Assembly (NCBI GenBank): GCA_021829835.1 | Contig: JAKBPE010000005.1 | Coordinates: 1,700 to 65,699, forward strand | Length of the DNA: 64,000 nt | Source: a bacterium | Lineage (GTDB): Archaea > Micrarchaeota > Micrarchaeia > Micrarchaeales > CABMGC01 | Reading direction: 5' to 3' | Part shown: positions 11,749 through 36,152 of the stretch, one piece after another | Layout: the number at the start of each line of letters is the position of its first letter | Numbering within the stretch: position 1 is the stretch's first letter | Program-made: the position numbers and the translations under genes | The notes under the pieces: model-generated | Database searches by the model: none | Seen by the model: the letters and a program-made list of their open reading frames with translations, nothing else | What the model was told of the DNA's origin: nothing

Positions 11749-12909
11749 ATGATAAAACAGATTTATGGAGGAGTAAGCGGAGCGGCCTATACTTCTTACC
11801 AGAATAGGTTGGGTTTTACCTACAATCTACCAGATATCAGTGAAATTTCAACACAGATAAGAAAAGATGAGAGTAATAAAAAAAGGACACATAGCATTGC
11901 TAAAATATTCAGAGCCGCGCTCCTTTTTGGTTTTGGCTTTTTAAGCAACATGCCACAGGCGAATGCCGATGATAATGGAAAGGCTGATTCGGCAAAACAG
12001 ATAGATATGAAGAATTCTGCAGGGATAGTCATAACAGAAGGGAGACCTGCTGGAGAAGTACTGGCAATCGCAGAGATAAAGAGTTATCCCAAAGGGATTT
12101 CTTATGATAAGTATGACAAAAAATCATTAACATTAAATGGGTTTTCCTTCCAACTGAATCTTTTTGCACATGTAGAAATAGGAAATAATAAAAGGGAGCA
12201 ATATCTATGGCTGCAGAATAGCAGGTTATTTATAGATAAGGGAGAAGGGAAATGGGAAACCCTGAAAGGAGTCGACATATTTAAGGTAGGAAAGGTAATT
12301 GAGTATAAGGAGATACCTGAAAATATGAAATCGTATTATAAAAGGCTTAAGAATGTCAGAGGAGCAGAAGAAATGGAGGAAGGGGAGATTACAGCAGAGG
12401 CAGAAAACGGTGTAAAATTTGTCAGTGAACCACATACGAATTGTCTGGTTTACAATGGAGAGGCAGTAGCCACCGAATTTCCATTGAAGATAGCCTTGGA
12501 TATCTCTGTCAGAAAAGTTAACAGTGGAGTAGTTGAAATATATTTTAAGGATGTTCCAGTTAGGGATGGCATAATAGACTGGAAAAATCAGAAAATAATT
12601 GTCTCTGCAAGATATTATGATAAAAACATAAAGGATGTGGATATGGAATTCAGTAAGGATAGTAATGCAGCCATGGTAACAGGAGGATTGGGAAACGGCA
12701 ATTATTTTGTCGCTCAGCGTTTTGATGCTGAATTTAGCATGTATGCCGTAAATGGGAAAAGGGGAGAACTTGTCCCATTGAAGCTTGGAGATACTACTGA
12801 TAATTCAACAGCCGAAGGAATAACAGGAGTCCAGGTTAACCAGATATCACCCAATAAAGTAGAGATAACTTCTACTATAACCGCAGAATCTGTAAAAATT
12901 AGGAGATAG
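11749..12909 (+). CDS. Thermopsin-like (peptidase A5) protein, paralog 2
   Basis: FSFQLN, YLWLQNS, NAAMVTGGLGNG, STAEGITGV; colinear with 10549..11664; signal-like segment ending ANA. Confidence 0.65.
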   Translation: MIKQIYGGVSGAAYTSYQNRLGFTYNLPDISEISTQIRKDESNKKRTHSIAKIFRAALLFGFGFLSNMPQANADDNGKADSAKQIDMKNSAGIVITEGRPAGEVLAIAEIKSYPKGISYDKYDKKSLTLNGFSFQLNLFAHVEIGNNKREQYLWLQNSRLFIDKGEGKWETLKGVDIFKVGKVIEYKEIPENMKSYYKRLKNVRGAEEMEEGEITAEAENGVKFVSEPHTNCLVYNGEAVATEFPLKIALDISVRKVNSGVVEIYFKDVPVRDGIIDWKNQKIIVSARYYDKNIKDVDMEFSKDSNAAMVTGGLGNGNYFVAQRFDAEFSMYAVNGKRGELVPLKLGDTTDNSTAEGITGVQVNQISPNKVEITSTITAESVKIRR

Positions 12910-12999: not shown

Positions 13000-13911
13000 C
13001 TATCTGCTTCCTGTAACAAATTCTTTTTCTGTCAGATATTCATCATTTATCCCGGAATTCACAAGAGGTATTATCCTATATCCAGATACATTCTTCCCAT
13101 TTTCGCTCATTTCTACTGGAACAAGCCTGATGTTGAGCCTTCTCATCTCCATTGACATACCGCTTCCTTTTTCAAGCAGGTAATCCTGGTATGGTTGTGT
13201 TGCAATTGGAAACTTCGAGATCTCTTCACTCATTATGCCAGTGAATGCCCCATTTCCAACTAACCCCCCTTTGAAGGTATGTTCGAGTGATGGGAATAAT
13301 GTTTTTGCTATTTCACCAGTGCGAAGATCTTTAGCCTCCGTTGAGATGTTATTTACCTCAACGCTTAGTGACAACGAAACGATATCTCCTTCTTTTATCC
13401 CTTTTTTCAGGACAATTTCAGAGCCATCATCTGATGAGAGCATCTTCCTGTTGTCTTTCCATACATTATAGACAAGCCTGAATTCATGTCTCTCCGGGAG
13501 ATAGCTTACTCCGAACTGATACCATAGGCCGATGGTTGCTCCGTTTACAAGATTGAGATATTCTATAGTATTGTTGTTTTTGGATGGAACAGCGGTTATT
13601 GTAGCCTCAACATGATTTGTATCGCTGCGATACATAGTATATAGCTGGTTATAGTATAAGGAATCCTTAGTTAGTGGATCGGCAGGCTTTTCCTGTGGAG
13701 TGTACGAGGTATAGCCTATGTATCCCAGAAGCAATGCCAATACGGTTACGGAAGATAAGAAGCCGTTCGTAGAAAAATCTTTCTTTTTTTCTACATTTTC
13801 TTCGGTTCGTTTTAGATTTGAGTAGTCGGTTACTCCTTCACGTTGAAGCGTTGTTGTCCCTCCGTATGTTGTCCGCTCTTCTGCCCCGCGATGGGGCTTT
13901 TTTACAAACAT
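13000..13911 (-). CDS. Membrane-anchored protein, possible G1/eqolisin-like glutamic peptidase
   Basis: One TM, then WYQFG, IKEGDIVSL and FTGIMSE; same motif order as 17591..18508. Confidence 0.5.
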   Translation of the reverse strand: MFVKKPHRGAEERTTYGGTTTLQREGVTDYSNLKRTEENVEKKKDFSTNGFLSSVTVLALLLGYIGYTSYTPQEKPADPLTKDSLYYNQLYTMYRSDTNHVEATITAVPSKNNNTIEYLNLVNGATIGLWYQFGVSYLPERHEFRLVYNVWKDNRKMLSSDDGSEIVLKKGIKEGDIVSLSLSVEVNNISTEAKDLRTGEIAKTLFPSLEHTFKGGLVGNGAFTGIMSEEISKFPIATQPYQDYLLEKGSGMSMEMRRLNIRLVPVEMSENGKNVSGYRIIPLVNSGINDEYLTEKEFVTGSR

Positions 13912-17590: not shown

Positions 17591-18508
17591 GTGGCTATTG
17601 TAAAAGACGCAAGGTTGCAAATTCAGAGAGCTGAAAAGGATATTGCAGAAAGACGTAAAGATAGTGGTTTAAAGAAGATGGTCAGATCGTTTGTTCTGCC
17701 TGCAGCATTAGGTACTGCTCTTTTATTTCATCAGACTCACACCTATGCACAGACACCAAATCCGGAAGGAGATGCTGAACTTCAAGGCCCTTCAGCAAAA
17801 AATTATTTCACACATATAGCAGTAAAATATCTGAATCCTCAGTTGAAATTTCAAAAAATGAGCATTGAGCTCAAGGCTGTACCTGTCACGAACGTTTTGT
17901 GGGCAGGGTACGAACTTAACTGCCTTTTGGATAATCAGATGTGGGCACAGACAGGCTTGATTTACTTTGGGGGAAATTATTATCTGCTAAATCAATTGAT
18001 GGTTGAAGATAAGCCCCTTTATGCGCCTAATGGTGATGTAGGCAGAGAGCCCACCGTAGGAGGAACGATTAACAGCGGGGATTCGATTAAAATAGGACTT
18101 GAGGTAGATAAAGGCAAGGTTTATTTCAGACTCGATGATCTCAGCAACGCTGGAGTAAAGGCCGAAAAGGAGTTTGATGTGGGTTCAGCAACTGCATGTG
18201 TCGGAAAACAAAATTTCACATGGGGAACCTATACTGGAATCGCAGTAGAAACAGTAAGCTATACTTTAAGCATAACCACCCCAGGATTACCAGAACTTAA
18301 CATGCAGGAATTTAAGAATACATCGGAGGTGCTCCCATCAAAAGAGGATTTGGCCCTAGGTGCGAAATATTTTATTCCCAGGACAGGAAAGAGGATTTTT
18401 ATGGGAGATGAGATTCCACAAAGGCCAGTAGGTAATAAAGTAGGCCCTTTTAAAGTAGATATTTCTCCGGAGCTGGTTAGAATATATAGAGAATCGCCTG
18501 GAAGTTGA
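17591..18508 (+). CDS. Secreted protein, possible G1/eqolisin-like glutamic peptidase
   Basis: Signal-like segment, WAQTG, INSGDSIKI, YTGIAVE; paralog of 13000..13911. Confidence 0.5.
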   Translation: MAIVKDARLQIQRAEKDIAERRKDSGLKKMVRSFVLPAALGTALLFHQTHTYAQTPNPEGDAELQGPSAKNYFTHIAVKYLNPQLKFQKMSIELKAVPVTNVLWAGYELNCLLDNQMWAQTGLIYFGGNYYLLNQLMVEDKPLYAPNGDVGREPTVGGTINSGDSIKIGLEVDKGKVYFRLDDLSNAGVKAEKEFDVGSATACVGKQNFTWGTYTGIAVETVSYTLSITTPGLPELNMQEFKNTSEVLPSKEDLALGAKYFIPRTGKRIFMGDEIPQRPVGNKVGPFKVDISPELVRIYRESPGS

Positions 18509-18550
18509 ACATTATAAGTTAGGATTTCCGGAATTTTCTATAGTGGGAAG

Positions 18551-18615
18551 TATAACCCCGAATTTAAAATGCTCTGATCGGGATTTGAACCCGAGTTTGA
18601 GCCGTGAGAGGGGCT
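18551..18615. repeat. att-like direct repeat (displaced tRNA-Glu 3' fragment plus flank)
   Basis: Matches 21986-22050 except one substitution and two homopolymer indels. Confidence 0.95.
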
Positions 18616-18642
18616 GAGAAAGAGGTTGCATTATTTAACTTA

Positions 18643-19741
18643 TAGTAGATTAGATTAATAAATGAACATTTATATGCTTATTTATCCACATATCATATGG
18701 TGTATGTATGTGGGATTTACCAAAAGGTGAACGTTTTCTTCCGAAAACGGAACTGAGCAAATTGAAGAGCCTCTACTCTATCGAACAGAAAACAAAACCG
18801 AAGATAAGGTTGTTGTGTGCAATTCACCGCAAGAAAGGAGAAAGTATCGATGAAATTGCAGAAGAAACTAATCTGAAAAGGAGGACAGTGCATAGCATAC
18901 TTCATCGCTTCTGTGAAAGAGGTGTGGAAGCAAAAGACAGCATAAAACAGGGCGGCAGACCATCGTTTCTTACGGTTCGACAACGCAAAAGTCTTGTACG
19001 TTATCTGGAGGGACGAGGACCACCAAGAAACGAGGGCGGATTATGGACTACGAAAGAGGTAAAGGAGTACATCCGAAAAAGGTATGGTGTTAAGTACACT
19101 TCAGTACATGTGTGGGAGTTATTGCAGGCCTTAGGATTGAGTATGCAGAAACCTAGACCAAGGCACTATAGACATCCAAATGAGGAAGATATCGACAAAT
19201 TTAAAAAAAAGCTTCCAGGTTGGTACGCCATTACCGAAAGAGAGGCTTCGTAATTGGATGCGAAGACGAAGCGACATTCGGTCTTCTTCCGATAATACAA
19301 CGGGGTTGGGCGAAGAGAGGTAGCCGGCCAGTTGTGACGATAAACAGCAAGAATGTGTGCACAAACGTCTTCGGCGCAAGGAGCCACAGATCCTTTGTTT
19401 TCTCATTTTCGGAGAGGAAGAAACAGAGAGACTTTGTAAGGTTTGCTGCCAAATTCTCAAGACGCTGGGGTAAAGTATTGCTATTCGTAGATAACGGGCC
19501 TTGCCATCATGGAAAAATAGTAGACAGATTTTTGAGATTGCACGCAAAGACGTTCAAGTTGGCGTTCTTTCCTCCATATTCTCCGGACCTGAATCCGCAA
19601 GAACAGTGTTGGAAACCTGCACGGAAGAAACTCTCCAACCGTTTCCTCCCTTCTTTGCAATCGGCAAAGTACCACATCTCTACAGAATTCAATAAGCCAA
19701 ATTTTATGCCTAAAATGTTCAAATATTTATCTAATTAGCTA
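18643..19741 (+). mobile_element. IS630-family insertion sequence
   Basis: TA at both ends; imperfect TIRs (about 24/30 matches, 18642-18671 vs 19713-19742); split transposase. Confidence 0.9.
18708..19738 (+). CDS. IS630 transposase (ORFs 18708..19253 and 19220..19738 joined by -1 frameshift)
   Basis: HTH and winged helix (WTTKEV), A8G slippery run at 19203-19211, DDE triad EDEA / DNGPCH / DLNPQE. Confidence 0.9.
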
Positions 19742-19745
19742 TTAG

Positions 19746-19918
19746 ATCAAAATAAAAAGGGAAGACAACGTGACCTAAGGGAAAGGATGCTAAGTCTGAC
19801 GCCAGAAGACCGCAAGGGGTTAGGCATAAATAAGTCAATGTTGTGGTATATGCAGAAGAACATACGAGAGGGTAAGAAGATTAAGGTTTATGGAAAGGTT
19901 ATGGGTAAAATCAATTAG
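19746..19918 (+). pseudogene. Casposase (casposon Cas1) C-terminal HTH remnant
   Basis: Manual translation with one frameshift: IKIKREDN/DLRERMLSLTPEDRKGLGINKSMLWYMQKNIREGKKIKVYGKVMGKIN*; resembles the family-2 casposase tail as recalled, not searched. Confidence 0.75.
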
Positions 19919-19926
19919 TGTTGTTC

Positions 19927-20067
19927 ATGGATAAAGAGCAAATGAAAGCTGAGATAACAAAGCTTATCGAAAAGTATGCTCGTGAGAAGGGCAAAAAGTA
20001 CAACGAAGGGGCTACGATGGACATTAATATCGTCGTATATTATGGTATGTTTAATAATATACAGTGA
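19927..20067 (+). pseudogene. Truncated N-terminus of a type IIG/Eco57I-like restriction-modification enzyme
   Basis: MDKEQMKAEITKLIEKYAREKGKKYNEGAT resembles the start of N6-methylase/endonuclease fusions; lies directly after the cas1 remnant. Confidence 0.4.
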
Positions 20068-20072
20068 GCACT

Positions 20073-20107
20073 TAACTAGATTACATATTCCCGATGGGAA
20101 CAATCGG
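20073..20107. repeat. Imperfect direct repeat with TTCCCGATGG core, upstream copy flanking alkA
   Basis: taactagattacatattcccgatgggaacaatcgg vs 20992-21027 tgactggattgttatttcccgatggaagcatttcgg. Confidence 0.6.
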
Positions 20108-20994
20108 TGTTTACTATGAGGGTGGGTTCAAATCTTACACTGAAGCCAGTAGGTCCATTTGATTTACGGTTATCATTGAGAGTTATGGTTAATTTCTCGC
20201 CAGAACCAGCAATCGAAACAGATGTGTTACGGGAAGCTGTGCACATAGATGGTAAACCGTGCATCCTAGAAGCTAGGCAAATAAAGAAGACACCAGCCAC
20301 AATAGAGGTATCAAGTAGCGCAGGTAACACTACTAAAATTAGAGAACTAGCCGAATGGATGCTTTTTACCGATTTGAATTTACTGCCATTCTACCGTATT
20401 GCTAAAAGCCACAAGATACTAGGTCCTATAGCTAAGGAGTTATACGGTGTAAAGGCCTTGCGAACTGCTTCATTATTTGAGATGATGGTCATAGCAGTAA
20501 CAGAGCAGCAGATATCCCTAACCGCTGCGTACAGAATAAGAGACAGGGTGGTTCAGCGTTTCGGTGAAAAGATTGGCAGGCTATTTGTTTTCCCTACCGC
20601 AGAGTCCCTGTCAAAAGCATCAGAAAGGGAACTTAGATCTTGCGGCTTGTCCAAACGGAAAGCAGAATACATTATGGGCATAGCACAGCAGGTGTCAGAC
20701 GGATCGCTTGATGTTGATAAGCTTACAACGCTTTCGGATGATGATTTCAGGGAAACACTGACTAAGATTCGGGGCTTCGGACAATGGTCTGCAAATTACA
20801 TACTCGTAAGGGGGCTGGGACGTGTAGACTGCGTACCGGCGGATGACCTTGCGGTGCGCAGCATTGTTGGCAAGTATCTTGGCGATGGTAAGAGGATGTC
20901 GGAAGCACAGGTTTTAAATGACATAGAGCCATTTGCGCCATTCCGTGGGCTTGCCGTCTTCTACCTCTTGGCACATGACAGGCTATCAAGGTGA
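20107..20994 (+). CDS. alkA: DNA-3-methyladenine glycosylase II (AlkA, HhH-GPD family)
   Basis: FEMMVIAVTEQQIS, FPTAESL, GLSKRKAEYI, HhH LTKIRGFGQWSA, PADDLAVR. Confidence 0.9.
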   Translation: MFTMRVGSNLTLKPVGPFDLRLSLRVMVNFSPEPAIETDVLREAVHIDGKPCILEARQIKKTPATIEVSSSAGNTTKIRELAEWMLFTDLNLLPFYRIAKSHKILGPIAKELYGVKALRTASLFEMMVIAVTEQQISLTAAYRIRDRVVQRFGEKIGRLFVFPTAESLSKASERELRSCGLSKRKAEYIMGIAQQVSDGSLDVDKLTTLSDDDFRETLTKIRGFGQWSANYILVRGLGRVDCVPADDLAVRSIVGKYLGDGKRMSEAQVLNDIEPFAPFRGLAVFYLLAHDRLSR

Positions 20995-21027
20995 CTGGAT
21001 TGTTATTTCCCGATGGAAGCATTTCGG
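20992..21027. repeat. Imperfect direct repeat with TTCCCGATGG core, downstream copy starting at the alkA stop codon
   Basis: See 20073-20107. Confidence 0.6.
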
Positions 21028-21125
21028 CTAATTACCTTTTATAAACCTTTATTATGATAGTTACATTAAGAATTTATGGAAATCGGACCGGAGTTGAAGA
21101 GATACCTCCTTAACCCACGCAGAAA

Positions 21126-21443
21126 GATATAGGCTAGCTAAGAAGGAAACAGATCATTATCGGAGAGATAGAACATATCGGAAAAGAGTCGAATAACCTT
21201 GAAGAGAGTGAAGTTATCGGTGTTTCAGATAACGATTACGTTATCTATGATAACAAAACAAAGCAAAAGATAACAGAAGTTATCAAGAATATGACTACAA
21301 GAGATGCTAAACGCATCGGATTATCGAAAATGCAGATGTTCAGGTTGAAAAAAAAGATAAAAGAAGGAAAGAGGATAGTGTTAAAAAGGAAAACGTTAAA
21401 GAAGTTAATGAGAATGTGGGGATATGCCAAGACCTATGCCTGA
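21126..21443 (+). pseudogene. Casposon family-B DNA polymerase C-terminal remnant
   Basis: Manual translation DIG*LRRKQIIIGEIEHIGKESNNLEESEVIGVSDNDYVIYDN...RDAKRIGLSKMQMFRLKKKIKEG; the IGKESNNLE motif and HTH tail resemble casposon PolB as recalled. Confidence 0.75.
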
Positions 21444-21630
21444 GATAAGAAAAAAGGTTCTCGATGAATTATTTGGTGATTGGGAAGATTACAAACACCA
21501 TTTCAATTCAATTGATCTTAAAGTGGCTACGTTAGAGAAACTTATCAATAGGACTATAAAAGCAACTTCAGAAAAGCTAGAAGAGGAAAAGAAGGTAATT
21601 GAAAAGAGCCTAGTTGGTAAAAATAAATGA
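21424..21630 (+). CDS. Small hypothetical coiled-coil protein
   Basis: 68-aa ORF overlapping the end of the polB remnant. Confidence 0.45.
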   Translation: MPRPMPEIRKKVLDELFGDWEDYKHHFNSIDLKVATLEKLINRTIKATSEKLEEEKKVIEKSLVGKNK

Positions 21631-21813
21631 AAGTTGGTTTTATGAGTGAACAAGATTTAACTAAATGGTGTTGATTGAACCCAACACCGTGGTTTATATG
21701 TATATTCGTTCTACTAGGCATGTTCTCGTGTCTCCGGCAGAATTACTGGCGCGAAATTTTTGCGCTGGAGCTGCCGTTGATGAAATAACGATAAGAAAAC
21801 GTTTATTTCTGCG

Positions 21814-21871
21814 TTGGAGGGTTCAATTCATCTCCGTCCTAAAGGGCGGTCAGGTTTCTTGACCCCTCCAA
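21814..21871. repeat. Hairpin resembling an IS200/IS605 end or MITE
   Basis: Outer stem TTGGAGGGTTCAA / TTGACCCCTCCAA encloses CAATTCATCTCCGTCCTAAAGGGCGG. Confidence 0.45.
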
Positions 21872-21973
21872 ACCACCCACTACGCTAAAATTATGTTAGA
21901 ATCCTACCTCTAAGAAACACGGAATTTTACGACGACAAAATTTTACTTCGACGACAGAAATAGGGTAACATTT

Positions 21974-21995
21974 GGGGCTTCTATATATAACCCCC
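21974..21995 (-). repeat. Candidate casposon terminal inverted repeat
   Basis: Minus strand GGGGGTTATATATAGAAGCCCC (G-run, AT tract, C-run) begins 10 nt after the tRNA discriminator base. Confidence 0.5.
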
Positions 21996-22005
21996 GAATT
22001 TAAAA

Positions 22006-22080
22006 TGCTCCGATCGGGATTTGAACCCGAGTTTGAGCCGTGAGAGGGCTCCGTCCTTGACCGAGCTAGACGATCGGAGC
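22006..22080 (-). tRNA. tRNA-Glu(CTC)
   Basis: GCTCCGATCGTCTAGCTCGGTCAAGGACGGAGCCCTCTCACGGCTCAAACTCGGGTTCAAATCCCGATCGGAGCA folds as a cloverleaf; no encoded CCA. Confidence 0.96.
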
Positions 22081-22110
22081 AGTAGTAACCAATTTATTGA
22101 TTGCTTCCAT

Positions 22111-32347: not shown

Positions 32348-32518
32348 TTACGCTAAAAATCCGAAATGCTTATGAGAAAAATACTCAGTTAAGGATAACC
32401 CATAGGTATTATTGCAAATAAAACTTTTACGAGGCATGGGCCCGCGGAGAATCGAACTCCGTGTCTTCACGTTGTCAACGTGACGTCTTAAGCTTTTGTC
32501 GTCGTTTTCTAGCTCCAT
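32348..32518 (-). CDS. Integrase N-terminal fragment (intN), running on into host DNA
   Basis: MELENDDKSLRRHVDNVKTRSSILRGP aligns in frame with VRRLLHTEETRSPILRGP at the start of 35205..36152. Confidence 0.75.
   Translation of the reverse strand: MELENDDKSLRRHVDNVKTRSSILRGPMPRKSFICNNTYGLSLTEYFSHKHFGFLA
32437..32490 (-). repeat. attR: 3' three-quarters of a tRNA-Val(GAC)
   Basis: TAAGACG TCACG TTGACAA CGTGA AGACA CGGAG TTCGATT CTCCG CGGGCCCA; 44/54 identical to the tRNA-Val(CAC) gene; lacks the 5' acceptor strand. Confidence 0.9.
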
Positions 32519-32617
32519 TAAAACACCCATAAACAAAAATTCACAAAGCCTAAGCATTGTACATCTGAACACTAGCATTTGAATTTCTAGCTATATAAGC
32601 ACATAGTGTTCGGATTT

Positions 32618-33355
32618 CTAGCGCAATCCGAACCCATGTAAGAAATCCTTAATTCTATTCCAGAACGTTTCCTCAGGTGTATCCAATTCACGTTCTTCAG
32701 ATTCTTGTCCAGCAAAAGTATCCTCTTTGGTATCGAGTTTATGCCCTAATTTTCTGATAGTTTCCATAAAGAGATGTTTATCAAGAGCTTGCTTTCTATT
32801 CAATAACTTGTGTTGTAATAAGTCATATTCGTAAAGGATTTTGCTATTTTTTATTATTGTAACTCTCAACAAATGCTGCCTAAAGTTCGGCCTTTCTTTC
32901 CCGCTTATGTAACTCCATATATTCCTAAACTTATTGTCAATATCTTTGAATGCAATAGTAGAATGAAACTTGAACTCTGTCTTATTTTTACTATCCTCTT
33001 TGGATTTAGAATAAGTTAGTGGTATCAATGCGCTAGCCAAATCAGCCCTTAAATTTACTAATTCATCTGATGGCGCTATGTCCAAATATATTACTTTATT
33101 TGTAGAATTGTCAAAATAGTTGAAGCCTTTAAACGTGAACGGCACACGTTCATATTTAGAACATACTCTAACAACTTCCGCAACAACATTTCTTTGCCTT
33201 CTTGTAAAAAAAGGACCGTATAAAGAGATGTGCGGAACTACATGCCTTCTTGTCATGCCCCTAACTCTGAACTTTCTGCCCACTTCATAAATTAGCGTTT
33301 TTGCGTATTGTTTAGCATGACCTCTAATTCTAAACTCTATGTGGTAGACAGCCAT
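32618..33355 (-). CDS. 2H phosphoesterase (2'-5' RNA ligase-like)
   Basis: Two HxS/T motifs: PHISL and FHSTI. Confidence 0.85.
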   Translation of the reverse strand: MAVYHIEFRIRGHAKQYAKTLIYEVGRKFRVRGMTRRHVVPHISLYGPFFTRRQRNVVAEVVRVCSKYERVPFTFKGFNYFDNSTNKVIYLDIAPSDELVNLRADLASALIPLTYSKSKEDSKNKTEFKFHSTIAFKDIDNKFRNIWSYISGKERPNFRQHLLRVTIIKNSKILYEYDLLQHKLLNRKQALDKHLFMETIRKLGHKLDTKEDTFAGQESEERELDTPEETFWNRIKDFLHGFGLR

Positions 33356-33958
33356 CTAATCATTGAATAGCTCTTTTGATTTATACGTTTCTTGCTCGTC
33401 TTGGTTTTGCTTATTTCCTAGCGAAAGATATTCTAGTTTTTTGAACCCGTGAACTTTCGCCACAATATTTCTTGGAAATATTGATACACGCCTGTTATAT
33501 TGTTCGACTACCTCATTATATCCAAGTCTATATTTAGCTAGTTTATGTTCCATGTGCGATATGTTGCCACGCCCCATAATCTTCTCGTGCAACCTTTCAG
33601 CTTGCAGCTTGGGGTATCTCTCAAATACCGCTTGTATTTTCAAGAAGCTATTTTCTACATCTTGTGCAGCTTGCACTCTTTCGTTTAGCGGTGCGTCTTT
33701 ACTCCATCTGCTTCTCGCTTCAATGGTGTCCTTTAACGCCTTGTATTCGTGTATGTCGTATTTCTTTATGGCCTGAGCCAGAGCCGGCAGCATGTCTAGC
33801 CTTTGCTGCATTATAACATCTATACCAGCAAACCTCTTCTCAGCCTTGTTCTTCCAATATTGGAACTTGTTGTAGATGGTAATCCAGCTTCTAGCTATCA
33901 CTACAAACACCAATGCCACCACAGCAACTATCGCATACAAAATTATATCCATATTCAC
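33356..33958 (-). CDS. LemA family protein
   Basis: N-terminal TM, IDVIMQQRLDMLP, ERYPKLQA, YNEVVEQYN...FPRNIVA. Confidence 0.92.
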   Translation of the reverse strand: MNMDIILYAIVAVVALVFVVIARSWITIYNKFQYWKNKAEKRFAGIDVIMQQRLDMLPALAQAIKKYDIHEYKALKDTIEARSRWSKDAPLNERVQAAQDVENSFLKIQAVFERYPKLQAERLHEKIMGRGNISHMEHKLAKYRLGYNEVVEQYNRRVSIFPRNIVAKVHGFKKLEYLSLGNKQNQDEQETYKSKELFND

Positions 33959-33962
33959 ACCA

Positions 33963-34133
33963 TTAAGTAGAAAAATAATCTTTCTCCTTCACCTTCGTTG
34001 GTTTGATGCTTACCTCAAAATACAGTATCATCTCTTTAATAGCTTCTTGCTTAGTTTTAAGCTTCTTCGTGAGCTTGTAGACCTCAACAATCCTGTCCTC
34101 GTCTTCGGACAGGTCGATTTGAATCTTTACCAT
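33963..34133 (-). CDS. Small DUF2683/ribbon-helix-helix-like DNA-binding protein
   Basis: MVKIQIDLSEDEDRIVEVYK...KTKQEAI beta-alpha-alpha pattern; first gene of the operon. Confidence 0.65.
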   Translation of the reverse strand: MVKIQIDLSEDEDRIVEVYKLTKKLKTKQEAIKEMILYFEVSIKPTKVKEKDYFST

Positions 34134-34143
34134 AATAATGCCG

Positions 34144-34160
34144 TGATATAACATATATCA
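34144..34160. promoter_or_regulatory. Candidate operator (inverted repeat)
   Basis: TGATATA-ACA-TATATCA lies between the ATATATATA box (34166-34174) and the RHH start codon. Confidence 0.5.
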
Positions 34161-34197
34161 TGCACATATATATACCTTTCTGCCCCAAATAGATTAG

Positions 34198-34785
34198 ATG
34201 AATATGGCAGGCGATGATGAAACACCTGGATTGATCCCACAGCTACAAGCCTTGCTTGGGCCAGTAAATGCTCAATTCAAGAAAGACCTTGTAGGTTATA
34301 AAATCTCAGACCTTTACGGGATTTTTGTAGGGTTGGTGTTTCTGCTGAGCTTTGGTGTCGGAATACTCTCTGCTTACAGCCAAAGCTCGCCATCCAACAT
34401 AATCATGTTCGGCACTATAATAGCTGCTTGGGGCCTCATTGGCGGGATAGTGCTATTCTTCCTCTTCGTGTATGTTTTCGTGCATGTCTATACGGCAGCA
34501 TTCAAGCATACACCTTCTCTGAAAGCCACGCTTATCTGGCAGATAATAGCCATGATGGCAGCAATAATACTCACGTTCCTGAGCGGGTCACCTAGCTACA
34601 TCTATGCTGGTTACGCCATATTCTTCGTGCTTCTTTTCATCTACCCACTGGTCTGGGTATTGACAGAACAGCCAGCGGAATCCGAGAAGATAAAAGGCAC
34701 GCTGCACAGGACTTACCTAGCGATAACCATAATCATATACATAGTCCAGTTCGTGATACAGTTCGCCCACTTATCAGCACTTTAG
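34198..34785 (+). CDS. Hypothetical integral membrane protein (~5 TM)
   Basis: 195-aa hydrophobic ORF inside the element. Confidence 0.75.
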   Translation: MNMAGDDETPGLIPQLQALLGPVNAQFKKDLVGYKISDLYGIFVGLVFLLSFGVGILSAYSQSSPSNIIMFGTIIAAWGLIGGIVLFFLFVYVFVHVYTAAFKHTPSLKATLIWQIIAMMAAIILTFLSGSPSYIYAGYAIFFVLLFIYPLVWVLTEQPAESEKIKGTLHRTYLAITIIIYIVQFVIQFAHLSAL

Positions 34786-34894
34786 GTAACCCTAGCCCTT
34801 GAAACCACCACTCTATCGCTAATCTGGCTTCGCAGATTGCTCACGAGGGGGACGTCCCAACGGACTTTAAGCTGCCACCAGCGACGAAACTAGA

Positions 34895-35196
34895 GCCGAT
34901 TTTTCCCCGCCAAAAATCGGCCGCCTTTTGTGGACAAAGGACGTAGTTTCTAACGCCACCATGTCCTACAAAGTAGCCGCAGCAGCCGTAGCCCGCCGTG
35001 CGACACCCAAAGGTGTCTTAAAGGCGGGCGGAGGCTGCGAGGCTGGAGAGTCTCTACACGACTCTCTACATGGACGGCTCTAATATTACTGTGCAGTAGT
35101 GTAGAGAGAAAATGACCTATTTACGAGGATATCCCTCGTGGCGTTTCTCTACATGAATTTACCTCGCCGTGTAGAGAACTTTAGGGCATGTAGAGA
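34895..35196. other. GC-rich hairpins plus six TCTCTACAYK iterons (candidate origin or recombination control region)
   Basis: Stems at 34895-34921 and 34982-35038; motif copies at 35051, 35063, 35146 (+) and 35098, 35168, 35187 (-). Confidence 0.6.
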
Positions 35197-35204
35197 AAGC
35201 CTAG

Positions 35205-36152
35205 CTAATGGGGCTTGTAAAGCCTTGCCTTCAGGCCAACAGCTCGGCTCAGGCCGAAAGTGTTGTCAATCTCTTTGTAAAGCTCGTCTTTCCTTGTGCT
35301 AATGTAGGTCATGGTGGTGCTGGGGTCGCTATGCCTTGCAAAGCGGCTAGCAAGCACCACGTTCCCATTGGTCTGCCTTGAAAAGCTGGTTATGGCATAG
35401 TGCCGGAGGCTATGCGTGGTAAGCCTATGGAGCCGCCTTACCTGCCTCCCATCAGGCTCGTCGCTTATGCCATAGGATTCCGACAGCCCTGCTTTTGCCA
35501 AGTAGCGCGTAAACCTATTGCGCACGTAGTTCACCTCAACGTGCATCAGCTTGCTGTGGCTATGCCACTCTTTGAAGAATACGTAACCTTCTGAATTTTC
35601 GATATTTTCGGAATTGCGGTTTACGAATGCTATGGTTTGCTGGAATAATGGAACGGGTATAAGGCAAGTATCTATTACCTGCGCCTTCTCTGTCTTAACT
35701 GTAAGCTCCCTTGTGTCAAAGTTTATGTCTTTGACGTTTACGCTTACAGCCTCGCCTATCCGAAGGCCGAGTTGTGCCTGAAATGAGAACAATAACCTAT
35801 ACTTTTCACTATCTATTGCCCTAAAGAAGACATTGAGTTCCTGCTCCGTAAAGCCTTTATTCAGGTTTCCGTATTTGGGAATACGGCTCCGCTTGAAACG
35901 CTTTACGTAGTGCTGATGGATTACAGACCTGAGTTCCTCGACTTCATGTTTGGCGAGTTTGGGGAGCAGCAAATCCAGCCCGTTCTTGTAATCCAAGAAG
36001 TCGGATTTGCGTAGGGAACCGAACTCTGAACTAACTGCTTTTGCTAGCTTGTCAGTGTGTTCGCACACCACTTTTGTCATCGTATTTTTCAAAATGGGCC
36101 CGCGGAGAATCGGACTCCGGGTCTCCTCCGTGTGAAGGAGGCGTCTTACCAT
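35205..36152 (-). CDS. Tyrosine integrase, catalytic part (intC), overlapping tRNA-Val
   Basis: GLRIGEA (R), KTEK (K), THSLRH (HxxR), ARHSD (H), TMTYIS (Y). Confidence 0.93.
   Translation of the reverse strand: MVRRLLHTEETRSPILRGPILKNTMTKVVCEHTDKLAKAVSSEFGSLRKSDFLDYKNGLDLLLPKLAKHEVEELRSVIHQHYVKRFKRSRIPKYGNLNKGFTEQELNVFFRAIDSEKYRLLFSFQAQLGLRIGEAVSVNVKDINFDTRELTVKTEKAQVIDTCLIPVPLFQQTIAFVNRNSENIENSEGYVFFKEWHSHSKLMHVEVNYVRNRFTRYLAKAGLSESYGISDEPDGRQVRRLHRLTTHSLRHYAITSFSRQTNGNVVLASRFARHSDPSTTMTYISTRKDELYKEIDNTFGLSRAVGLKARLYKPH

Follow-up and report, generated by a model that had tools for sequence, protein, structure and literature searches.

The stretch of DNA analysed here, called the window, comprises 64,000 nucleotides of contig JAKBPE010000005.1 (assembly GCA_021829835.1, forward strand, positions 1,700 to 65,699). 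Behind its gene for tRNA-Glu(CTC) a locus was examined which a preliminary description had presented as a fossil casposon, an element mobilised by Cas1. Outward from the tRNA gene, on the minus strand, follow ten variable bases, a terminal inverted repeat (TIR), a 68-aa open reading frame (ORF), the tail of polB and an AlkA-like gene. Beyond these lie the start of a restriction-modification (R-M) gene, the tail of cas1, an IS630 insertion sequence and a short TIR interior; the outermost parts are a duplicate of the tRNA 3' half, the ten bases once more and 9 nt of TIR (Table 1). In the Rfam search of the locus only the tRNA was matched. The locus is a real but dead remnant of a family-2 casposon.

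Table 1 Features of the casposon locus behind tRNA-Glu(CTC), numbered as in the window (TSD, target site duplication; HTH, helix-turn-helix)
Feature	Position	Strand	Remarks
TIR tip, 9 nt, likely a scar left here by an earlier casposon	18551..18559	-	short scars likewise behind tRNA-Glu in same-genus genomes G004, G005 and G007
TSD of 14 bp, far copy	18560..18573	-	identical to 21996-22009
Copy of tRNA-Glu 3' half, beginning at the anticodon stem	18570..18612	-	mismatch at 18575; bridged by contigs of run X7
Casposon TIR, inner part	18604..18628	+	18/18 nt identical to L098 TIR interior; resembles L011, L016, L051
Short piece of cas1 before IS630 (weak)	18629..18642	+	nucleotide alignment to cas1 of L076 and L078 crosses the IS position
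IS630-family insertion sequence	18643..19741	+	Pfam HTH_33 1.6e-19, DDE_3 2.4e-22; overlapping HTH and DDE frames; imperfect inverted ends of 38 nt
Casposase cas1 3' end, frameshifted, with C-terminal HTH	19742..19918	+	77% identity over 47 aa to L076 Cas1
Start of Eco57I-type R-M gene, about 31 codons	19927..20067	+	matches in 13/247 other genomes
AlkA-like HhH-GPD DNA glycosylase, intact	20107..20994	+	Pfam 3.5e-16; NCBIfam PRK10308 6.5e-19, under its cut-off
Casposon polB 3' end, C-terminal HTH	21125..21443	+	in-frame stop 21135-21137; 76% over 96 aa to L076 PolB
ORF of 68 aa, also 3' of polB in other elements	21424..21630	+	85% to L076, 95% to L094 (53-56 aa)
120-nt segment adjoining the inner TIR end	21770..21889	.	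95% copy on contig C25; no Rfam family
tRNA-proximal TIR, long subtype, about 112 nt	21884..21995	-	matches in 28/61 genomes; aligned with L011 TIR
TSD of 14 bp (last 4 tRNA bases and 10 nt), 8 nt behind TCAAATC	21996..22009	-	
tRNA-Glu(CTC), intact target gene	22005..22081	-	

The gene fragments were found where the preliminary description had placed them. The cas1-like piece reads IKIKREDN in frame from 19746, shifts frame into DLRERMLSLTPEDRK and stops at 19918. The PolB-like piece extends over 21126-21443 with its in-frame TAG, the R-M-like start follows directly on the cas1 fragment at 19927, and the sequence quoted behind tRNA-Glu(CTC) is present. No match in the cas1 tail or the polB tail of the window was obtained in the Pfam scan. 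Their casposon origin was borne out by related genomes, as the best matches were Cas1 and PolB of intact elements at tRNA-Glu, bounded by TIRs and TSDs (tblastn against a relative's intact proteins: Cas1 E 8e-20, PolB E 1e-33). The cas1 tail showed 53-77% identity to five intact Cas1 proteins, and the polB tail 44-76% to five proteins of 880-918 aa.

For the intact Cas1 of L076 the best PDB match was 6OPM (E 1.8e-78, next match 1e-26), covering residues 2-400 including the C-terminal HTH. We take this entry to be the casposase structure of M. mazei; the PDB search itself labels it Cas1 only. Fusion of Cas1 to a C-terminal HTH was thus seen in L076, and the fragment in the window is exactly that tail. 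The large relative protein contains exonuclease and polymerase motifs, including IDFTSMYP, KIIAN and YCDTD, the last in four of five rows. A PolB group with motif C of the CDTDS type has been tied to the casposon of A. boonei (PMC7544198). Full PolB gave no match in Pfam, NCBIfam or PDB sequence searches; one of the two PolB proteins tested (L082) matched a DNA polymerase in PHROG (E 1.8e-6). Family-2 casposons are defined by Cas1 and PolB that both have a C-terminal HTH, an HNH protein and two HTH proteins (PMC4046053). The Cas1 and PolB tails cross-match at 33-41% identity, consistent with the similar C-terminal HTH of this family. In relatives, a conserved ORF of 93-96 aa before polB weakly matched a PHROG HNH family (E 0.003) and two conserved ORFs gave weak HTH matches (E 0.01 and 0.05); none of the three is present in the window. 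Furthermore, cas1 stands beside polB and outside any CRISPR-cas locus, with both tails in the window and full-length pairs in relatives. The CRISPR-type Cas1 of L079 is merely 27% identical to the casposase. In that genome (G039, L079:3929-13853) a CRISPR-Cas locus with array was noticed within 12 kb behind tRNA-Glu(CTC).

The R-M start behind the cas1 tail represents recurrent cargo in this position, several of its matches lying directly behind a cas1 end. A homolog of 945 aa with HSDR_N, N6_Mtase, Eco57I and TaqI_C domains is an Eco57I-type enzyme. The AlkA-like gene is probably a passenger; the relatives' loci gave one match to it, with 22% identity. Intact cas1 or polB was not found elsewhere in the own genome (assembly 89% complete), which holds tails only, here and on contig C4. 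On the latter (G000:C4:2960-6101) a second casposon graveyard was observed at tRNA-Pro(CGG), in which a long TIR is accompanied by two cargo ORFs, two tails of polB and a short piece of TIR that has no matching TSD. The assembly holds two different tRNA-Pro(CGG) genes. Short TIR scars were also seen 10 nt behind three further tRNA genes, at C30:37953, at tRNA-Arg(TCG) on C25 and at tRNA-Pro(TGG) on C38. The C25 copy of the 120-nt segment adjoins transposase-like frames, and the segment is possibly a small mobile end.

Loci of relatives were obtained via TIR matches (28/61 genomes) and via Cas1 (PF01867, 13/61 genomes). Six whole elements of 8.5-13.1 kb were identified, each with full-length Cas1 and PolB, both TIRs and an exact 14-bp TSD. 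Four of them are the intact elements at tRNA-Glu which the preliminary description had suggested looking for: L076 (8505 bp), L078 (10308 bp) and L143 (10738 bp) at tRNA-Glu(TTC), and L077 (9778 bp) at tRNA-Glu(CTC). The other two lie at tRNA-Ser (L085, 13085 bp) and tRNA-Pro (L227, 10753 bp). In all six, cas1 and polB are divergent, and either end may face the tRNA. Gutted or cargo-only elements with both TIRs and perfect TSDs were found in L075, L081, L098, L099, L126 and L146, and tandem TIR-TSD-TIR junctions in L078, L092 and L069. Two intact cas1 genes first taken for solitary ones (L224, L225) have polB just beyond the sequence stretch examined. Deletions fusing polB sequence to a cas1 tail were noticed at L106:9881-10207 and L099:9634-10570, in L106 as an open polB-cas1 hybrid frame of 96 codons. 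Among 20 loci of the named collection, 18 are labelled Micrarchaeota, Micrarchaeaceae or Micrarchaeum, one Nanoarchaeota and one Nitrosopumilaceae. The complete genome of Ca. Micrarchaeum sp. A_DKE (L111) has a cas1 tail near tRNA-Pro; contrary to the others, one close protein (P0003) is labelled Marsarchaeota at NCBI. The host group of these casposons is the Micrarchaeota, a DPANN lineage. The genome of the window is placed there through its kinship with these genomes, at the level of family or order.

According to the preliminary description, relatives without the element should lack the sequence downstream of tRNA-Glu. This expectation failed in part, as a TIR start is present at three of the four readable same-genus tRNA-Glu(CTC) loci without an intact element, G006 having none. 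The GGGGTTATATATA motif could hence be ordinary host sequence behind tRNA genes, similar to a terminator or TATA box, and the protein fragments unrelated debris. Among 29 readable tRNA-Glu loci, chosen with a query containing the TIR, 11 have an exact tip, four a decayed and one a doubtful one, whereas the motif is absent at 13. Moreover, it begins a TIR of 30-155 nt and recurs inverted, with the 14-bp TSD, at element ends up to 13 kb away. Solo TIRs are known as casposon scars from 43 M. mazei strains (section 9 of PMC4779613). An origin as host sequence is refuted by the paired TIRs with TSDs and has next to no probability left. Because of the loci lacking the motif, and of its inversion with TSD at the ends of whole elements, TIR starts without an element are read as solo-TIR scars.

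Within the loci examined, 155 distinct exact TIR tips were collected, of which 107 stand just behind a tRNA gene, 47 do not and one is cut off; this set is smaller than all 171 matches of the order-wide search described below and includes tips from other searches. The 47 tips away from tRNA genes are mainly far ends, tandem junctions or tips at tRNA fragments. Nine tRNA families are represented among the 107 (Glu 41, Pro 39, Arg 9, Ile 7, Gln 4, Ser 3, Gly 2, Cys 1, Val 1), and tRNA-Lys is targeted with inexact tips. At 95 of these ends the distance from the end of TCAAATC to the TIR is 22 nt, and at 101 it is 21-23 nt. The casposase of A. boonei uses TCAAATC 8 bp upstream of a 14-15-bp TSD in vitro and needs CC at the TSD start (PMC6614799). 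The spacing in the order agrees exactly with this geometry; the CC is kept at Pro targets, but not at 38 Glu targets starting with AGCA. In the own genome (34 relaxed tRNA calls), TIR starts follow 5 of 16 tRNA genes with TCAAATC, three exact and two decayed, and none of 18 without it. The motif thus appears nearly necessary, not sufficient, for insertion, and many tRNA genes are likely found through one short common sequence.

The far boundary of the locus differs from that of a plain insertion. Positions 18551-18612 and 21986-22048 form a direct repeat of 62 bp (63 alignment columns, one mismatch, one gap) made up of 43 nt from the tRNA 3' half, the 10 bases downstream of it and 9 nt from the TIR. 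A target duplication had been proposed before and is present; it measures 14 bp according to the intact relatives, not 15, and is embedded in the longer repeat, which rules out a plain 15-bp TSD as the boundary. The preliminary description had also raised the question whether 18616-18642 continues cas1 once the IS630 is left out. Only about 18629-18642 aligns, weakly, with cas1; 18616-18628 belongs to the TIR, so that cas1 throughout is ruled out. The TIR alignment of 18604-18628 reached a local score of 36 (maximum of 30 among 100 shuffles). The window has one whole TIR and the inner part of another, as expected of a remnant. An inverted TIR tip was not found at the far end; the outer 55-115 nt of the far TIR are missing, and in their expected place stands the tRNA half copy. 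In a comparison with 4 of the 20 listed sequencing runs, contigs of run X7 spanned the far junctions without differences (18508-18597 and 18583-19912), and a contig of run X1 crossed the inner one; either run may be the source of the assembly. A loose contig end at 21996 (runs X1 and X11), a candidate for an empty allele, was absent in a narrower comparison and was not used.

From its start at the anticodon arm, the 62-bp repeat has the form of the direct att (attachment site) repeat that tyrosine integrases leave over a tRNA 3' half. It may represent attL and attR of such an element at tRNA-Glu: casposons would then have entered behind the tRNA once it had been restored, and the integrase element would have been lost by a deletion reaching from the TIR interior to where attR begins. 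The casposon pieces would remain the same, solely the origin of the far boundary being different. Integrase att sites often begin at the anticodon arm. The genome has four tyrosine recombinases, one of them in the window with an att repeat at tRNA-Val, and tRNA 3' fragments stand before TIRs in L088 and L080. In M. mazei, casposon and integrase elements use the same tRNA-Leu (PMC4779613). However, neither an integrase gene nor a remnant was found between the repeats, the four PF00589 matches of the genome lying elsewhere. The repeat also takes in 10 downstream bases that vary among same-genus genomes, and it stops at the casposon insertion point plus TIR tip, whereas the att repeats at tRNA-Val and in L088 stop 0-3 nt past the tRNA. 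This origin is therefore considered possible but the less probable one. The element at tRNA-Val(CAC) extends over 32436-36152 with a 55-bp att repeat (82%; 32436-32490/36094-36148) and an integrase frame (35205-36152) overlapping the tRNA. At L080:7245-7340 and L088:2427-3211, a tRNA, a short stretch like reversed TIR interior, a tRNA 3' fragment and a TIR follow one another; loose ends in runs X11 and X12 are similar.

The two boundaries could also stem from one event, in which a single rearranged, non-autonomous mini-casposon was mobilised in trans. Its tRNA-proximal end would have been joined normally and its far end aberrantly resolved at the anticodon arm, giving a duplication of about 50 bp in one step. 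Gutted elements with both TIRs and perfect TSDs indeed exist in relatives, and the layout of cas1 tail and polB tail recurs at tRNA-Glu(CTC) in L106. On the other hand, no second copy of the composite was found among the relatives' loci examined, and so long a duplication is not reported for casposases in the literature examined, as far as its available text extends. We regard such a one-step origin as unlikely.

The preliminary description had assumed one element with two ends, which did not hold, as the locus is composite with both tails facing the tRNA. A single divergent element cannot yield this arrangement unless it is rearranged, and the arrangement fits two stacked, oppositely oriented insertions fused by deletion. 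Behind tRNA-Glu(CTC), the window very probably contains pieces of family-2 casposons in a dead stack fused by deletions, and at least two insertions likely entered a site already holding an older TIR scar. We infer the order of events, the number of insertions and the origin of the tRNA half copy as follows. Judging from A. boonei biochemistry, to which the genomic spacing corresponds, the casposase would read TCAAATC in the DNA of the tRNA T-loop, join the element 8 nt beyond it and duplicate 14 bp. By this mode of joining the tRNA would stay whole and the site reusable. One insertion with the cas1 end towards the tRNA would have left the cas1 tail and the R-M start, and a later one with the polB end towards it the polB tail, the 68-aa ORF and the long TIR. 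Internal deletions would have taken out both cores, and the IS630 would have inserted. At the far end, the tRNA 3' half may have taken the place of the outer TIR by a template switch or an unequal exchange at a shared GAGAGGG. The far TIR and the tRNA copy join and overlap at this stretch, which occurs both inside the TIR and in the anticodon arm of tRNA-Glu(CTC) and has some flanking likeness. Such an exchange has about an even chance of being the source of the far boundary and is favoured over the deleted integrase element and the aberrant one-step insertion. As the locus retains a single TIR tip and no enzyme, it is predicted to have lost its mobility. Turnover at the site looks recent: in a contig of run X12, from a near-identical strain (two differences in 836 nt), the TSD is the same but the TIR behind it is of a different subtype, and 18537 is a point at which contigs of X1, X7 and X12 stop or part from the window.

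Several points weigh against this account of stacked insertions and targeting. An inversion inside a single element is a possible way to align both tails, too. The intact element L223 departs from the divergent layout, its polB and cas1 being convergent. The tRNA half copy resembles an att site, and 14 kb from the locus the window contains a tyrosine-integrase element. The assignment of PolB depends on motifs and the single PHROG match and is accordingly put forward as a putative one. Furthermore, TCAAATC is missing at 6 of the 107 tRNA-adjacent ends (four TCGAATC, two TCAATTC). Glu and Pro make up 80 of the 107 targets, though about half of the host tRNAs have the motif, which shows it to be insufficient for targeting. 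The counts of tRNA ends are also not independent events, since related genomes inherit old insertions.

The preliminary description had further proposed a single invasion of tRNA-Glu in a DPANN lineage by a Cas1-mobilised element. The element and its host lineage, the Micrarchaeota, were supported, but instead of a single invasion an order-wide family with many tRNA targets was found. In the 248 genomes of the order, the exact TIR 13-mer matched 171 times, in 98 of them, and its reversed control 17 times. Cas1 matches were obtained in 65/248 genomes, including some CRISPR Cas1 at 21-33% identity, and near full-length, stop-free cas1 in 9/248 (10 genes). Within the three families of the order, 14 of 177 other genomes had matches to the PolB core, against none of 223 sampled from the phylum's other families. 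A FastTree analysis comprised 120 casposase-like sequences (top matches of at least 340 aa and six taken from loci), with two CRISPR Cas1 proteins serving as the outgroup. A single clade of 72 (support 0.966) contained each of the ten distinct Micrarchaeota proteins together with one labelled Parvarchaeum; it stands beside a clade with Methanocella. The casposon donor cannot be named, since most tips are unnamed, the sequences were picked by a Micrarchaeota query and the outgroup is long.

Very short TIR inserts were found in addition. In L150 (9632-9649) a tRNA and TSD are followed by an 18-bp palindrome of two TIR tips and a further TSD. In L143 (451-482) the same 18-mer lies past the whole element, between the TSD and a copy with one mismatch, giving an array of tRNA leader, repeat, 10.7-kb element, repeat, 18-bp insert and decayed repeat. 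Such a layout of leader, repeat, insert and repeat was predicted for reused sites (PMC5137440). Short TIR palindromes occurred in 4/248 genomes (7 genomes for the reversed control). Only L143 and L150 are counted, by their context, since the palindrome of L248 is an ordinary TIR start, that of L141 (1501-1518, behind tRNA-Glu) has unlike flanks, and the control is higher. Slippage between the self-complementary TATATATA of two TIRs yields the same 18-mer and explains it simply, which makes the enzyme-made insert the weak step. The proposal that a casposase clade spread through a DPANN order via the common T-loop motif, sometimes integrating very short TIR pieces, is rather doubtful as a whole, the range over many tRNAs being well supported.

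tRNA-Pro and tRNA-Leu have been described as casposon targets before. The Micrarchaeota elements resemble AciBoo-C1 of Aciduliprofundum boonei (PMC5137440, PMC6614799) in insertion at the tRNA 3' end, TCAAATC 8 bp before a 14-15-bp TSD, a TIR 3' end in a C run, a C-terminal HTH on both Cas1 and PolB, and motif C of the CDTDS type (PMC7544198). In contrast, they reside in a DPANN symbiont host and use at least nine tRNA families, mostly Glu and Pro, instead of tRNA-Pro alone. Their Glu-target TSDs start with AG where A. boonei requires CC, their TIRs end in ACCCC instead of TCCCC, and the window copy is dead. With the family-2 casposons of Methanosarcina (MetMaz-C1 and tRNA-Leu elements; PMC4779613, PMC10359463) they have in common the 14-bp TSD, both orientations, solo-TIR scars, tandem reuse of one site and tRNA sites shared with tyrosine-integrase elements. 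Host phylum and TIR sequence differ, and the tRNA range of the Micrarchaeota is wider. TSD-flanked TIR-only inserts of 18 bp are not met in the available text on Methanosarcina, where excision in vivo leaves a single empty site. NitNCS1-C1 of Ca. Nitrosotalea okcheonensis (tRNA-Pro, PMC6563490) has the family-2 gene set and a tRNA 3' target, but is a single thaumarchaeal element. Casposases named Nitrosotalea and Nitrosopumilus showed 56-59% identity to L076 Cas1 and stand outside the Micrarchaeota casposase clade in the tree. No casposon in Micrarchaeota or DPANN was found in the literature searched, though supplementary tables or subscription papers may list some; the available text of PMC9939771, PMC9755687 and PMC9966878, the latter with its one supplement, names no DPANN casposon.

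To the left of the locus, the window encodes a Thermopsin-like protein (Pfam 4e-10) and two further proteins which lack annotation and are probably secreted (11749-12909, 13000-13911, 17591-18508).

The window is of value because it points to casposons having radiated in Micrarchaeota. An exact TIR tip survives in about 40% of the genomes of the order, and near-full-length casposases survive in nine. Together they allow the targeting rule established in vitro for one enzyme to be tested in nature: motif and 8+14 spacing hold at 95/107 ends, but the CC requirement fails at Glu targets. The drift of site choice from one tRNA to another could be traced in these casposases. R-M cargo is also brought by the elements into symbiont genomes of less than a megabase. 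Tandem stacks and 18-bp inserts are relevant to the casposon-to-CRISPR model; if the casposase made the 18-bp inserts, they would be natural leader-repeat-spacer arrays as proposed for the origin of CRISPR.

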